Assembly: GCA_963666975.2 (NCBI GenBank)
Contig: CAXVYR010000003.1
Span: forward strand, 768,001 to 832,000
Length of the DNA stretch: 64,000 nucleotides
Origin: Terriglobia bacterium
GTDB lineage: Bacteria; Acidobacteriota; Terriglobia; 2-12-FULL-54-10
Reading direction: 5' to 3'
The translations under genes were made by a program, and so were the position numbers. The notes beneath the pieces were generated by a model. The model saw only the letters and a list, made by a program, of their open reading frames with translations, did not search any database and was not told the DNA's origin. Below are positions 180 through 6,828 of the stretch, piece after piece (positions within the stretch are counted from its first letter, which is position 1; the number at the start of each line of letters is the position of its first letter).

Positions 180-2447
180 CTAAAAGATCTCCGGGAAATA
201 ATAAGTCAATATGGTATTCAGCCGCATATCGGCCACAATGAGTTCCTTGTTCTTGGGATTCAAGGCCACTCCGCGCGGCTTCTTCAGCAGGCTCTTCGGC
301 CCCCCGATCTTCCAGCGGGGCGGCACGTCGCCGCTGTCGTTGATACTCCAAACGCCAACAAAAATTTCCTCCTCCGGCTCCATACCGCTGCCGCCGGGCT
401 GAGCCGCGACAATCCAGCCTTTCGGAGAATATATTTGGAGCTGATTAATGCGAGTAATGGCGGTCTGGGGACCATCGATCACGGTACGCGGCTTCACATT
501 CCCTTCGTCTGTGCGGTTAAACGTAAACAGAGCCCGGCCTACGCTGGTCACAATCACATTATGGACCGGATCAACGGCCAGCGTGGAAGTCCGCAATCGG
601 GTATCCGGCCCTTGGATCACACGGATCGGAGCCACATCGCCATTGCCTTCCCGGGGGAAAACCAGAATCCGGTCCACCGAGGGCACGAAGATTTCATTGT
701 GCACCGGATCAACATCCACCCGGTCCGGCCGCTTCAACTGTGTACTGGGGCCTTGGATGACCCGGATCGGAGGCTCCTCGCCATCGGCTCCTCCGCGGAA
801 AACCAGGATCGCCTGTGCAAAGGGGTTGGTTACGATGAATTCATCATGAACCGCGTCATAGCGAATGTCGTGCATGGTACGGCTTAAAAGAGTCTTTTGT
901 CCGGCAATCAGTCTGGTGGGCACCGCATTCTCCTCCGCCATCCTGGCGAAGGCCGCAATCTGCGGGTGGGCCACTCAGTTGGGCACCAGGATTTCCTCCC
1001 GCTTGCTGTCGTAGCCCGCAGCTCCTGGGTTCCCGATAGCCAGCGCCTGTTTGCCGAGCGGCGCGCTGCGGATGGTCCGCAGCGGCGCGACATCCCCGTT
1101 AGCCGCACGCGGAAAAACGGTGGCCGAATGGTTCCCCATGTTGGATACCCACATCTCATCGTTCTTCAAGTCCACAAAAATGCCGGTGGGGTTCTTGATA
1201 CCGGTCTTGGGCCCCTTGATGACCCGGGTGGGCGCCACGTCACCGCTGTCGGTCATACGAAAGACCAGGACCGAGTCGTCGGCGTCATTGGCGACGTAGA
1301 GTTCTCCGCGCTCGGAATCGACAAACATCGCCGCCGGCCAGTTCAGCTGGGTTTCAGGACCTTCAATCACCCGTAGCGGCGGCGTATCTCCCTCCGCTTT
1401 GATCGAATAGATGGAAATCGAAGGAGGATCAGACTGGCCGGAACCGCGTAGCGCACGGTCCCGGTCGAGCGGCCAATTTTCTTTGCGCTCCCTCCTTTGG
1501 GTAGGAAGTCCCGTTACAGCAATGTCTCCCTGGTCCGGACCCACATCGGGACGAACCTGATGGACTGAACCATGATTGCTGACAAACATCCAGTTATTCT
1601 TCGAGTCCACCGCAATGCCGTGCGGGTCTTCGAGTTCCGTCCGGTCGCCTTGCAGCAACCGCAGAGGCGCTTCGTCGTCCGCGGCCATCTTGTTGTACAC
1701 CACGACTGCGTTGTCGTGCTGGATCGTGAGGAACAACTCCTGATTTTGTTCATCGACAGCGATCCCGAAGGTCCCATGCGGCGTGGCCAACTCCCTTTTG
1801 GGCGGCACGTTCCCCCGGGCTTCGCGCCCGAAGATAACCAGCGTATTGACCGTGTCGTTGTTGACCGAATAAACATCTCCCGTATTCTGGTCCAAATACA
1901 GCCCGCAGTTGAACTCAAGCTTGGTCCGCAGTCCGCCCACCATGCGCTTCGGCTCGGTCATGGTGGCGTTGGGAGGAGTATTGTCCAGCCGGTTGAACAC
2001 CTTAAAACCGAACAGGTTTTCATCCTGCAGATAGACCTCGTTCGTATTGACGTCCACTGCCACGGCGCTGTAGGTGGGATAGGTGTCCCGGATCATCCGT
2101 ATCGGTTCCCGGTCGGCATCGACGGCAGGCCTGTCCTCATCGAGCGCCGGCGCGCTCCTGTTTGCCGCCATTTGCTCCTGCTGCAGCGCGGCCACCAGCG
2201 TGGTGTTCGTGCTGGCCGGCACCCACTGGCACATCTCCCCGCCCATCATGCCGTCTGCCATGGGCATGGGGTCGGAGGAAACCAGTTGGGGATACCCTGT
2301 GGGTCTGCGCAAGGCGGCCTCGGATGCCGCGCTCCATTCCCGCTGTTTCGCCTCCCCGGTAAACAGCACCCATGCGGCAACGGCAATTACCAGAGAGATC
2401 ACCGCAGTCACGCTGATTTTTTGTACCACGCACGATGCTCGGGCCAT
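180..2447 (-). CDS. Exported NHL-like beta-propeller repeat protein, copy 1; probable selenoprotein read through TGA at 975-977 (~755 aa, U491)
   Basis: ORFs 975..2477 and 180..974 are in the same frame, separated only by TGA. Repeats GIAVDxxxxELxVxN...IxVFxRxAxGDVAPxRxIxGPxTxL continue across the stop. GGAGG RBS precedes ATG 2447. N-terminal hydrophobic segment present. Confidence 0.8.
932..952 (-). promoter_or_regulatory. Putative bacterial SECIS hairpin (copy 1)
   Basis: mRNA CCUUCGCCA-GGA-UGGCGGAGG, a 9-bp stem with a GG-starting loop 31 nt after the UGA. Confidence 0.7.
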
Positions 2448-2505
2448 ACGAATTTCGCCTCCTTCCAAATCTGCCACTAAACGGAAACAGTTCGGCTGCT
2501 ATAAC

Positions 2506-2633
2506 AGGTTGTTGAAAAACGCCATTTGCCCGCTCCCTCACGGTCGCGGCTCGGAATGGGCGTGCTGATCTGGCTGCATTTGCCGAGCCGCGCGCGTTAG
2601 CAAGCGGACCCTGCACCAGTTTTTCAACAACCT
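2506..2633. mobile_element. MITE with 15-bp terminal inverted repeats
   Basis: AGGTTGTTGAAAAAC (2506-2520) and GTTTTTCAACAACCT (2619-2633). Internal REP-like motif cgctccctcacggtcgcggctcgg also occurs near 47860 and 54556. Confidence 0.75.
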
Positions 2634-2723
2634 CCTCAACGAAAGGCAAACAGCCGGGCTGTGGAAGCCTTGTGCCAGGCCTCCTGCCGGACTGCTTGCC
2701 AGAACAATCAAAGGACAATCAAA

Positions 2724-4949
2724 CTAAAATATTTCCGGAAAGTAATACGTTAACACGCTGTTCAACCGCATGTCGGCCACAATGACTTCTTTGTTCTTGG
2801 GGTCCAGCGCAATCCCCCGCGGCTTCTTCAGCATGCTCTTCGGCCCGCCGATCGTCCAGCGGGGCGGCACGTCGCCGCTGTCGTTAATGCTCCAAATACC
2901 GACAAAGACGTCTTCGGGCTCCTGTTCCGAGCTGAGGCCGGGCTGGGCCGCAATAATCCACCCTTTCGGCGGATAGACCCGAAGCTGGTTGATACGGATG
3001 ATGCGGGTCTTGGGGCCCGAAATTACGGCTTTCGGCTTGACGTTGCCATTGGCGGTGCGGTCGTAAATCAGCAGCGCCCCCGGAGGGCTGGTCCCGCCCC
3101 GGTGCTGGATTCCAACGATCAGCAAATCGTGGACCGGATCAATGGTCACTCCGCCGGTGTTCTTCAGCATCGTGTCAGGGCCGCGCAGCACCCGGATGGG
3201 AACCGTGTCGCCGTTCGCTTCCCGGGGATAGACCATCACCCGGTCGCTTTCGGGAATGTAGATTTCGTTGTTCACAGGATCAATCCCCAGGCGGTCCGGC
3301 CCATCCATCATGGTGCTGGGGCCCTGGATCACGCGCAGCGGAGGCTCCTCGCCGTCGGCTCCTCCCCGGAAGGTCAGCACGGCTTGCGCAAAGGGATTGG
3401 TGACGACGAACTCATCATGGATGGCGTCATAGGCGATGTCGTGCATGGTGCGCGCCAGCAGCGTCCGCTGCCCGGCCAGCAGTCGCGTAGGCTGCGTATT
3501 CTCCTTCCCCAGCCTGGGGAAGCTCGCAATCTGCGGATGGGCCACTCAGTTGGGCACCAGCACTTCTTCCCGCTTGCTGTCATAGCCCACCGCTCCCGGA
3601 TTCCCGATAGCCAGCGCCACCTTCCCTAGCGGGGCGCTGCGGATGGTGCGCAGCGGCGTCACGTCGCCGTTCGCTGTGCGGGGGTAAACCGTGGCGGAGT
3701 GGTTGCCCATGTTGGAGACCCACAGCTCATTGTTCTTGAAATCGACAAAAATCCCCGTGGGATACTTGATTCCAGTCTTCGGTCCCTTGACAATCCGCGT
3801 GGGCGCCACATTGCCGCTGTCGGTGGTGCGGAAGACCAGGATTGAATCATCGGCGTCGTTGGCGACGTACAGATCGCCGTTTTCCTCGTCCAGGTACATC
3901 GCCGCCGGCCAGTTCAACTGCGTTTGGGGACCCTCAATGATCCGAATGGGGGCCGTATCACCTTCCGCCTTCAGCGGATGAACCGTGATCGAGGGCGGCT
4001 GAAACTCGCCGGAGCCGGAAACCCTGCTGGCGTCCCAAAACCCGGTGGAGTTGTCAAAACCGGGGCTGTAGCTGACGCTGCCGTGGTTGGCCACAAACAT
4101 CCAGTTGTTCTTGGTGTCGATAGCAATGCCGTGAGCGTCTTCGAGCTGTGTACTCTTCCCTTCAAGCGTCCGAATCGGCTCTTCCCTGCCCTCGGCCATC
4201 TTGCGGTACACCACCACCTTGGGCGGGTGCTGCACGGTGAGGTACATCTCTTCGGCGCCCTCATCCACGGCGATGCCCCAGGTCCGGTGCGGAGTTCGCA
4301 ACTCGCGCTTGGGAGGCACGTTTCCGCTGGCCTCGCGCCCGAAAATCACCAAGGTGTCCACCGTGTCGTTGCTCACCGAGTAAACGTCGCCGCTTTTCGG
4401 GTCCACATAGAGTCCGCAATTAAACTCGAGCTTGGTGTTGATGCCTCCCACCATGCGCTTCGGCTCCGTCATGGTGGCGCTGGGCGGAGTGTTGTCCAGG
4501 CGGTTGAATACCTTGAAGCCGAACAGGTTCTCGTCCTGCAGATAAACCTCATCGGTGTTGGTATCGACGGCGACGGCGGCGTAGGTGGGGTAGGTGTCCC
4601 GAATAATTCGCGCCGGAGCGCGGTCCGCGTCGATGGTGGCGCCGGGGTCGACCGAGGTGCGGGCCTCGCCCTGCGGATGCCGCAGCGCGGCCAGCATAGT
4701 AATGTCGCCAGAGGTGGTATCGGCGCTGGCCGGCACCCACTGGCACATCTCCCCATTCATCCCCGGCATTTGCTCATAAGCAACCAATTGGGGATACCCT
4801 TTGGGCCTGCGCAGAGCAGCCTCGGATGCTGCGTACAACTGGGGCCGCTTTGCCTCACCGGCAAACAGCACCCAGGCAGCAGCGGCGGCCACCAAGCACA
4901 GCAAAGCCAGCAGGCTACTGCTCGGTCGCAAATGGAATCCTCGGTGCAT
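2724..4949 (-). CDS. Exported NHL-like beta-propeller repeat protein, copy 2; probable selenoprotein read through TGA at 3546-3548 (~741 aa, U468)
   Basis: ORFs 3546..4964 and 2724..3545 are in frame and joined by a single TGA at the same site as copy 1 (EVLVPN*VAHPQI). GGAGG precedes ATG 4949. Signal/TM segment present. Confidence 0.8.
3504..3522 (-). promoter_or_regulatory. Putative bacterial SECIS hairpin (copy 2)
   Basis: mRNA CUUCCCCA-GGC-UGGGGAAG, an 8-bp perfect stem with the loop 31 nt after the UGA. Compensatory pair change versus copy 1. Confidence 0.7.
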
Positions 4950-5012
4950 TGATACCTCCGTCAATGACGAGCATGAATACCCACAGCAGCTTCTACGGCG
5001 CGGTTTTGATCC

Positions 5013-5450: not shown

Positions 5451-5505
5451 GAGCGGAACCGATGGTCGCCAGACTGCTCTGCCGTCCCGGCTTATTATGG
5501 CTCGA

Positions 5506-5849
5506 TCGGCGCTGGCCGGCACCCACTGGCACACCCGTCGGGCCGTCTTCTCCCCATTCATCCCCGGCATTTGCTCATAAGCAACCAATTGGTAAACCTC
5601 CGCTTGGCAAAGGCCGCGTCAGCCCGAAACGCGATACCCTTTGGGCCTGCGCAGAGCAGCCTCGGATGCTGCGTACAACTGGGGCCGCTTTGCCTCACCG
5701 GCAAACAGCACCCAGGCAGCAGCGGCGGCCACCAAGCACAGCAAAGCCAGCAGGCTACTGCTCGGTCGCAAATGGAATCCTCGGTGCATTGATACCTCCG
5801 TCAATGAGAGCATGAATACCCACAGCAGCTTCTACGGCGCGGTTTTGAT
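5506..5849 (-). pseudogene. Degenerate duplicate of the 5' end and upstream region of propeller copy 2
   Basis: Near-identical to ~4720-5010, but with ~15-bp and ~40-bp insertions and a 1-bp deletion upstream of the RBS. Confidence 0.85.
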
Positions 5850-5983: not shown

Positions 5984-6415
5984 CTAGAAGATAAACTTCA
6001 AGCCAAACTGAATCTGCCGGGCCGAGGTGCGGGTGTCAAAAATCCGGGCCGCGTCGGCGTCCACTAAGCCCTCCTTCACGAGGTCCTTCCCTGCTGCGCG
6101 CGCCGCTGCAACATCTTCGGCGCCGGCGCCGAAATCAAAAGGATCCATAAATTTTCCACTTTCCGTCCCACCGAAATTGGGCCGGTTGAACAGGTTGAAG
6201 AACTCCGCCCGGAATTGGATCCGGGTGTTTCCCGTCACCTCGAAGTCCTTGAGGAACGACAGATCGAATGTAGCTATGCCCGGGCCGGTCACAGTGTTTC
6301 TGCCCGCAGTGCCGAAAAATCCCAGCTTGGAGGGGGCGAACTGGCTGATGTCATAGTACCGGTCCGGGCCGCCCAGCACCGGGTTGTTATCACCGCCCTT
6401 GACAAAAGCAAGGCT
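5984..6415 (-). pseudogene. C-terminal fragment of an Oar-like TonB-dependent receptor
   Basis: GRNTVTGPG..FDLSFLKDF..IQFRAEFFNLFNRPNF..ARQIQFGLKFIF. The 5' part is replaced by IS1-like sequence. Confidence 0.85.
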
Positions 6416-6828
6416 TGGCATTGGAATGAGGTGTGGCGCGCCTCGGAGAATTCGCGGAAGCTAAATACTTCCTACATCGAACGTTTGAACCGGACCATCC
6501 GGCAGGGCCCTGCCTACCTCGGGCGTCGGACCCTCAGCCACGCTCGGCGTTCTCGGCGGCTGGAAGATCATCTCGAGCTGCTGCGACGCCATGACAACTT
6601 TCGCAGGCCTCATCGTGCTCTGAAGTTTGGACACGAAGTCAAAACCCCGGCGATGCAGGCAGGCCTGACCCAAAAGCGGCTGACGTTCCGCGATGTCTTC
6701 ACGTCCATCCCAAACTTTTTGTGCTTGGTCAGGACCGTCTGTGTGTTCATCTTCCACGCGAATTCGCCCGGCCGGGAAGACTCGCCGATTTCAGGGGCTG
6801 CTTAACAACATTTGATTGCGGAAGCATC
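6416..6828 (+). mobile_element. IS1-family transposase 3' remnant with terminal IR
   Basis: NTSYIERLNRTIRQ..LGRRTLSHAR..NFRRPH. Nearly identical (inverted) to 23452-23860. Ends in gattgcggaagca. Confidence 0.75.

Follow-up and report, generated by a model that had tools for sequence, protein, structure and literature searches.

Tandem double-propeller genes with one in-frame UGA each in a Terriglobia genome: a predicted selenoprotein family

Bacteria make selenocysteine (Sec) proteins that leave the cytoplasm, as shown by the FCYXU TonB-dependent receptor (NF049945) and the multihaem protein ExtKL (NF040886), both of which stand in Table 1 of PMC13188914 (2026), where 119 prokaryotic selenoprotein families and subfamilies are catalogued. 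Here, we analysed a window of 64,000 nucleotides (nt) from a Terriglobia bacterium (assembly GCA_963666975.2, contig CAXVYR010000003.1, positions 768,001 to 832,000), at the start of which two tandem genes on the minus strand, A (180..2447) and B (2724..4949), each carry one in-frame TGA. Judged from sequence, each is very probably a single selenoprotein gene whose UGA is read as Sec, and the two would belong to a large, uncatalogued family of double-propeller proteins. An earlier note, made from the letters of this DNA, had proposed the two paralogues as a candidate new selenoprotein family, a proposal now supported by a cysteine (Cys) column in homologues, a selenocysteine insertion sequence (SECIS), the Sec machinery of the genome and purifying selection.

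The in-frame UGA and its Cys counterparts

When TGA is translated as U, gene A becomes a single open frame from the ATG at 2447-2445 to the TAG at 182-180 (755 amino acids), and gene B, a paralogue with 70% identity to it, becomes one from the ATG at 4949-4947 to the stop at 2726-2724 (741 amino acids). Both ATGs have a GGAGG ribosome-binding site upstream (2458..2462 for gene A and 4955..4959 for gene B, minus strand). Exactly one TGA is present per gene, at 975..977 (U491) and 3546..3548 (U468), in the shared context SKREE[IV]LVPN-U-VAHPQIA, which bears out what the earlier note had read from the sequence, namely one in-frame TGA at the same position and in the same context of each paralogue, and products of about 755 and 741 residues. 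Open reading frame (ORF) calling with translation table 11 cuts gene A into 975..2477 (500 amino acids) and 180..974 (264 amino acids), and gene B into 3546..4964 (472 amino acids) and 2724..3545 (273 amino acids). Residue numbers below are those of protein P0001, which starts 10 residues before the gene A ATG; its U501 is U491 counted from the ATG. Since two DNA runs from separate studies cover the entire stretch with zero differences at either TGA, the in-frame stops are not assembly errors.

The column of the UGA is occupied by Cys in related proteins. A search with residues 300-765 against a large protein collection gave 2734 proteins at E ≤0.001 among 8000 candidates scored, and the best 120 of these were taken into an alignment, where 117 have Cys at this position. 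The three remaining rows hold W (P0003), a gap (P0117) and, in the case of P0098, the N-terminal ORF of the window itself, which ends there. The motif N-C-V-x-H/Q-P is nearly invariant in the database homologues, as N-U-V-x-H-P is invariant in the family.

The host genome (4.23 Mb in 4 contigs, 98.9% complete) contains nine places with one TGA at this motif, eight of them at full length, with 747-794 codons between stops. The ninth copy (contig C4, 2003515-2005033) is degraded, with its N- and C-terminal parts in different frames and its middle gone, while its TGA and the hairpin described below are intact. Such recurrence of one codon and context, at nine places in this genome, at all family sites of other genomes (97 of 97) and at 81 of 93 metagenome-contig sites, goes far beyond what chance would produce. 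The sites in other genomes stem from scanning 185,579 species, each represented by a single genome, which yielded 258 stretches encoding relatives; the best 80 of these (77 loci) were examined together with the G112 locus, 78 loci in all, in which the other 12 pattern matches were unrelated sequence or other blades. The carrier records are labelled Acidobacteria, Terriglobia, Solibacteraceae, Bryobacteraceae or Candidatus Sulfopaludibacter metagenome-assembled genomes (MAGs), with three Binatia and one Verrucomicrobiia.

The metagenome-contig scan used an alignment of Cys forms only, a Cys-form reference and scan patterns away from the site. In its best 80 loci, one of which lacks the site, the 12 sites other than TGA are Cys codons (9 TGC and 3 TGT), so that Sec is commoner than Cys in the DNA sampled, even from a Cys-seeded start. 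The alternation of Cys and TGA at one aligned column, named by the earlier note as a sign of Sec, is therefore found both among proteins and on these contigs, and neither TAA nor TAG, which it had regarded as speaking against Sec, occurs at any of the 190 family sites. Protein databases hold mostly Cys forms because gene callers split the Sec forms in two; the ESM Atlas clusters nearest a Cys form, at 431-504 and 273-303 amino acids, have the sizes of the two halves.

The family is patchily distributed within the phylum of the host genome: a 241-residue piece found matches at E ≤1e-30 in 2 of 401 sampled phylum genomes, the host genome included. Where it occurs, it may be strongly multiplied, the copies in 14 carrier genomes numbering 41, 27, 23, 21, 19, 15, 8, 6, 3, 2, 1, 1, 1 and 1. 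The 41 copies lie in one 4.2-Mb MAG, and the 27 on one single-contig 3.8-Mb chromosome, where all 23 copies among the matches listed have the UGA. Among the matches listed for the 14 genomes (150 of 169), 149 carry a single TGA and one lacks it, which brings the TGA copies counted to 327 (97 + 81 + 149) in partly overlapping sets. Published selenoprotein gene records, all families together, stand at 39 and at least 46 in passages of PMC12013277. We consider the chances somewhat better than even that soil Acidobacteria of this group possess the largest selenoproteomes of any organism, made up almost wholly of one unannotated family.

A FastTree phylogeny of 267 full-length sequences (152 Sec and 115 Cys forms), computed after removal of the columns for residues 499-518, requires at least 24 changes between the Sec and Cys states, and exchange between the two has been frequent, as is usual in selenoprotein families. 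A Fitch count on the midpoint-rooted tree gives 13-14 changes from Sec to Cys and 10-11 from Cys to Sec; it depends on the root, and we do not rely on it.

The hairpin after the UGA and the decoding machinery

According to section 5 and the legend to Fig. 2A of PMC13188914, the consensus bacterial SECIS (bSECIS) has a loop of 3-9 nt, a stem of 4-16 base pairs (bp), a distance of 16-37 nt from UGA to loop and a minimum free energy (MFE) of -7.5 kcal/mol or lower, with a G in the first two loop positions, within the pattern N1-G-[G/U]-N-N2, where N1 and N2 are pairable. Both genes conform to all four constraints. The gene A hairpin (932..952, minus strand) reads CCUUCGCC-AGGAU-GGCGGAGG, its stem beginning 22 nt and its loop 30 nt after the UGA (-13.5 kcal/mol), and that of gene B (3503..3523, minus strand) reads (G)CUUCCCC-AGGCU-GGGGAAG(G) (-12.9 kcal/mol); each has an 8-bp stem and a 5-nt AGGNU loop, which may alternatively be described as a 3-nt GGN loop closed by an A-U pair. 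Compared with gene A, gene B has exchanged a G-C for a C-G pair at the cost of replacing Ala by Pro and Ala by Gly. We propose that SelB and Sec-tRNA(Sec) would decode the in-frame UGA as Sec, directed by this ordinary bSECIS within the coding sequence (8-bp stem, A-GGN-U loop, 30 nt after the UGA). At gathering thresholds, Rfam matched a tRNA alone in the window, and no SECIS family.

The helix is maintained throughout the family. We aligned 66 nt from the TGA onwards in 104 rows (103 distinct), nine of them from the host genome and the others from the 78 loci elsewhere, and counted a helix of 8 bp (columns 26-33 against 39-46). Standard pairs fill 95.4% of the 824 helix cells of the 103 distinct sequences, compared with 35-65% when the 3′ partner is moved one, two or three columns along. 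For covariation, the score is 0.273 as against 0.168 ± 0.006 after shuffling (none of 500 shuffles scored as high), and 59 cells are changed on both sides as against 21.7 ± 3.5 in the shuffles. All four Watson-Crick types occur at pair 27-45 (CG 27, AU 20, GC 15 and UA 13), one side of which is a silent third base in an Ala or Val codon and the other the last base of a GAN codon, so that pairing there decides whether Asp or Glu is encoded. At pair 30-42, 97 sequences have CG and 5 UA, and pair 31-41 is GC in 98 and CG in 3, gene B being among the three. The loop begins with AGG in 96 of the 103 sequences (AGGCU in 52, AGGUU in 25 and AGGAU in 14), and the MFE is -7.5 kcal/mol or lower in 102 of them, with a median of -11.1. 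Variable spacing at the junction, a further observation that the earlier note had expected to argue against Sec, is not seen; the TGA is followed by a hairpin that covaries, and both this hairpin and its spacing are constant.

The region that encodes the hairpin also differs in conservation between the two forms. The mean frequency of the major residue over positions 502-514 is 0.919 in the 152 Sec forms vs 0.750 in the 115 Cys forms, compared with 0.691 vs 0.637 in the remainder of the protein, and A511 is Ala in 146 of the 152 Sec forms vs 64 of the 115 Cys forms. Likewise, on the metagenome contigs 73 of 81 Sec forms vs 6 of 12 Cys forms use AGG as the loop Arg codon (counted by eye).

The host genome encodes the complete Sec machinery, whose presence the earlier note had proposed to check, with selA (563.5 bits vs a cut-off of 268), selB (371.8 vs 242), selD (349.5 vs 125) and tRNA-Sec (72.8 bits with Rfam; called SeC with anticodon tca by ARAGORN) all above curated cut-offs. 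The selD gene (contig C4, 1360322-1361257) has one in-frame TGA of its own, from which SelD of this genome would be a selenoprotein too. Of 1425 stop-to-stop frames with 400 codons or more, 522 end in TGA, which is thus an ordinary stop here; the genetic code is unchanged. The ratio of nonsynonymous to synonymous substitution rates (dN/dS) between genes A and B is 0.15 upstream of the UGA (365 codons) and 0.23 downstream of it (264 codons); thus, the codons 3′ of the TGA are under purifying selection, and the downstream part is translated. Among other carriers, selB exceeds its cut-off in 22 of 26 genomes, and the four without such a match all have selA and, in three cases, a tRNA-Sec above cut-off; these counts agree with decoding as Sec and add little to the case for it.

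Protein architecture and competing explanations

AlphaFold2, run on a 34-row alignment, modelled the fused protein as a single double propeller with confidence (predicted local distance difference test (pLDDT) 85.7; predicted template-modelling (TM) score, pTM, 0.81), an outcome in keeping with the structural check that the earlier note had suggested. In this model, the product would consist of an N-terminal membrane helix (21-56), a flexible, roughly 70-residue arm that has a conserved Cys (56-116, of low confidence) and two six-bladed NHL-type propellers, that is, twelve four-stranded blades with a disordered insert at 316-328. Residues 462-765, starting 39 residues before Sec, were also modelled alone and formed a closed six-bladed propeller (pLDDT 93.4, pTM 0.91). 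The hydrophobic helix of gene A (2310..2417, minus strand) is a putative signal anchor or signal peptide, and export of the two products is predicted from it alone. The Sec site is placed between strands 495-499 and 507-511, the second and third strands in blade 1 of the second propeller, so that Sec would be a loop residue there within N-U-V-x-H-P. The earlier note had likewise located the stop inside a blade, in the loop after a 'VxN' strand, which matches the model. The loop would thereby lie on the face that usually carries the active site in propeller enzymes.

No other stretch of 13 residues is as conserved in the Sec forms (0.956) as that starting five residues before Sec (496-508). Positions retained in at least 95% of both forms include R493, V502, P505, R533, H536, Y540, D545 and E546, to which N500 is added in the Sec forms, and the set from R493 to E546 falls in the blade of the Sec site and the next one. 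In the predicted structure, an invariant Sec or Cys on the NHL propeller face, near the His/Tyr blade and the Cys arm, would mark a putative active site. Two further Cys residues had been singled out by the earlier note as conserved and as possible redox partners. That of EMCQW in the arm (C83, or C73 from the ATG; 2229..2231, minus strand; pLDDT below 50; motif C-x-W) indeed occurs in 96% of the 152 Sec forms and 87% of the 115 Cys forms, whereas that of LEFNCG (C191; 1905-1907, minus strand) is present in 85% of the Sec forms vs 17% of the Cys forms, which mostly have Ser, and on this point the note is only partly right. C191 could track the Sec state through lineage or through a functional link.

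A hint of redox function comes from the neighbourhood. In 5 of 86 loci sampled, a small dihaem cytochrome c gene (two CxxCH motifs, 111-170 amino acids as called) lies 15-88 bp from a family gene, in the same direction, convergent or divergent (L035:517-1011, L070:7108-7443, L110:8276-8683, L112:5398-5910 and L115:8172-8537); four of the five genomes concerned were counted for copies and have just 1-3 each. On account of this hint, the invariant Sec or Cys and the conserved Cys on a mobile arm, we tentatively suggest, as the likeliest kind of function although at somewhat less than an even chance, an extracytoplasmic redox enzyme whose selenolate would be the catalytic nucleophile, recycled via the arm Cys or a small c-type cytochrome. 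The next in likelihood, possible if rather unlikely, is metal binding: Sec would be real but, instead of acting as a free redox nucleophile, would coordinate a metal or metal cofactor jointly with the invariant His and Tyr of the adjacent blade. Sec is a metal-cofactor ligand in formate dehydrogenase and [NiFeSe] hydrogenase. In keeping with such a role, a His stands three residues on (U-V-A-H) in 151 of the 152 Sec forms, H536 and Y540 are retained at the level given above in both forms, the arm before the conserved Cys is Met-rich in genes A and B, and the NHL lyase PAL (3fvz), which we take to bind zinc in its central cavity, is a structural match (TM 0.64). The Met-rich stretch is, however, not part of the family consensus, no metal-site family appears among the Pfam and NCBIfam matches, and H504 is replaced by Gln in 17 of the 115 Cys forms, which fits hydrogen bonding better than metal ligation.

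Other explanations deny that the UGA encodes Sec. It might be a true stop between two polypeptides, the second started by translational coupling from the GTG after the stop and both assembling into one propeller; a GTG, a possible start, directly follows the TGA in most copies, and public protein sets do contain separate halves (P0098 and the ESM Atlas clusters of 431-504 and 273-303 amino acids). We regard this as very improbable, given that the codon after the TGA is GTA or GTC, and hence no start, in 5 of the 103 distinct sequences (by eye), that CTGGTGCCCAAC, which precedes the codon, is without a Shine-Dalgarno sequence, as the earlier note had said of a well-spaced ribosome-binding site, and that the Cys homologues are single chains. 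In addition, the break would sit inside a blade of the AlphaFold model, covariation at amino-acid-changing positions of the hairpin would be left unexplained, and the 24 or more changes between Cys and TGA on the tree fit an exchange of Sec and Cys, not gene fission. Insertion of Trp, Cys or Gly at the UGA, by near-cognate tRNAs or a lineage-wide code change, would account for the W recorded at the site in one homologue (P0003); it is highly improbable in view of the 522 long frames that TGA terminates, of the single TGA that each gene has, invariably in the column where relatives have Cys, and of a SECIS at canonical distance alongside full Sec machinery. One of the nine host copies is clearly degraded (C4:2003515-2005033, in two frames), and the genes could by extension be pseudogenes created by nonsense mutation, but there is next to no chance of this with TGA at the same codon in the 327 copies counted above (in partly overlapping sets), a dN/dS of 0.23 after it and frames without further stops. 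Decoding of the UGA as Sec is therefore the explanation that we prefer.

Several observations nevertheless weigh against our interpretation of the UGA or of the function of the protein. Pair 27-45 is unpaired in 28 of the 103 sequences. The whole 81-nt stretches after the two TGAs do not fold significantly better than shuffled ones (z -1.52 and -0.26), so only the short hairpin stands out. All 8 pairs are kept in 7 of the 12 Cys-form genes on metagenome contigs (counted by eye), which suggests either that the helix is partly due to the conserved peptide F-A-R-L-A, from which part of the hairpin could indeed stem, or that these Cys forms are recent converts. selB also occurs in 160 of the 201 genomes sampled from the phylum, and its co-occurrence with the family was dropped as a discriminator because it is weak for this reason; three genomes of that sample are marked unpublished (G024, G049 and G152), each with a selB match, and the figure of 160 of 201, and perhaps that of 2 of 401, rests partly on them. 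Two metatranscriptome runs contain 7-9% of the words, their contigs being short pieces of genes A and B with 99-100% identity; none of these RNA-library contigs spans a TGA, and DNA carry-over is possible. Comparison of sequence or structure yielded no active-site analogue for the function, Foldseek returning only generic WD40 and NHL propellers. Finally, the recurrent neighbours of the family, described below, are themselves multi-copy in the host genome, so adjacency is weak evidence, and we draw no pathway from it.

Neighbourhood and comparison with described families

In the 86 loci of the neighbourhood sample, the recurrent neighbours are TonB-like outer-membrane barrels (25), Amidohydro_3 (17), a Na/sulfate-type symporter (11), a secreted protein of about 230 amino acids without a Pfam family (11), Amidohydro_1 (8) and UbiD (7). 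The secreted protein is often directly downstream on the same strand (the places of the protein include L069:7154-7864, L084:8100-8969, L087:9394-10029, L092:10982-11686 and, in the host genome, C3:767019-767789). By tblastn at E <1e-10, the host genome has about 53 Amidohydro_3-like, 18 Amidohydro_1-like and 34 TonB-like barrel places; large Amidohydro and TonB-like expansions thus accompany the propeller family in this 4.2-Mb genome. Within the window, a 145-amino-acid ORF at 5984-6421 (minus strand) matches just positions ~745-826 of the 838 of barrel family PF25183 and appears to be a remnant of a TonB-like receptor, the type of neighbour found in 25 loci.

The intergenic stretch of the tandem pair contains a dispersed repeat (2502-2635, about 130 bp), which has 55 matches in the genome at 75-100% identity, with copies just past the 3′ end of gene A (C3:767848-767949) and on contig C1, and word depth in public runs rises there from ~6-10 to 162-297; it looks like an element of the miniature inverted-repeat transposable element (MITE) or repetitive extragenic palindromic (REP) type flanking the tandem genes. 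At 5490-5798 (minus strand; G000:C3:773490-773798), a match to gene A residues 8-96 (48% identity, E 7.8e-12, one internal TGA) seems to be the relic of a third tandem paralogue, comprising the membrane helix and the arm. At the end of contig C1 (8.7 kb), the final 135 residues encoded by gene A recur at 99% identity (C1:7731-8135) together with the repeat (C1:7396-7497); the contig is probably an unplaced repeat or a duplicate assembly fragment of the locus.

Should every copy be made as a Sec protein, this abundant soil phylum would have a major and so far overlooked need for selenium as a micronutrient, and the family would amount to an arsenal of periplasmic, selenium-dependent enzymes whose catalysis is of a new type, built on a propeller scaffold. 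A beta-propeller in which Sec is the majority state, multiplied up to about 40-fold per genome, would alter the view of which bacteria are the most selenium-dependent. Hundreds of genes in public genomic and metagenomic data are split into two ORFs named 'hypothetical' or 'lactonase/YncE', which a family model with the Sec position flagged would repair.

Such names derive from a similar repeat type, by which public annotation labels the Cys forms after lactonase (PF10282), YncE (NF052280) or 6-phosphogluconolactonase (NF008258). Of the Pfam families, only NHL (28.3 and 35.8 bits vs 20) and, in part, Lactonase (26.7 and 25.8 bits vs 21.7, over ~90 of 344 profile positions) match the proteins of genes A and B, both above cut-off, whereas NCBIfam YncE (22.3 bits vs a cut-off of 400) and 6PGL (22.2 vs 370), the only NCBIfam matches, are so far below their cut-offs that the two proteins belong to neither equivalog, and the names were transferred from likeness at the level of repeats. 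A sequence search of the PDB gave no match. Foldseek found only generic tandem WD40/YWTD propellers for the whole model (TM ≤0.32), and for the C-terminal propeller (304 residues) NHL and WD40 domains without an informative enzyme, the closest being (query/target TM) TRIM71 9jur (0.73/0.80), TRIM2 7qrv (0.73/0.79) and Brat 4zlr (0.72/0.78), with PAL at 0.64. The Pfam NHL match and these superpositions agree in assigning the six-bladed NHL-repeat fold, which is shared with these four proteins at a sequence identity of just 13-15%. To our knowledge, TRIM71, TRIM2, Brat and PAL are RNA- or protein-binding modules or a lyase, without Sec; the family described here differs from such NHL proteins by its tandem propellers, its membrane anchor and its Sec or Cys residue.

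Among the catalogued selenoprotein families, we found none to which genes A and B belong, which agrees with the impression of the earlier note that this is not a classic bacterial family. Table 1 of PMC13188914 lists no propeller, NHL, lactonase or YncE protein among its 119 entries, the words 'propeller', 'NHL', 'lactonase', 'YncE' and 'repeat' have no occurrence in PMC13188914 or in a 2022 review (PMC9312934), and the nine new families named in the passages of the deep-Sep paper (PMC12013277) do not include this one. The NCBIfam models of catalogued extracytoplasmic selenoproteins, NF049945 and NF040886 among them, gave no match to either gene at E up to 0.01, and the full-text literature yielded no bacterial propeller, NHL, lactonase or YncE selenoprotein, supplementary tables, which could list the family as a 'hypothetical protein', and subscription journals being outside its scope. 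The family thus appears to be uncatalogued so far in the sources covered.

The extracytoplasmic selenoproteins NF049945 and NF040886 likewise have Sec outside the cytoplasm, in unrelated folds. With canonical selenoprotein genes dependent on SelB and a bSECIS, for which E. coli fdhF is the paradigm, genes A and B share a UGA whose counterpart in homologues is Cys, a stem-loop after it, and selA, selB, selC and selD in the genome. They differ from canonical bacterial selenoproteins in representing a new family and a new fold for Sec, without a CxxU or UxxC motif and without a thioredoxin fold, in having Sec as the majority state and in reaching up to 41 paralogues per genome. The decoding mechanism is therefore ordinary; the novelty lies in the family, the fold context, the predominance of Sec and the copy numbers.

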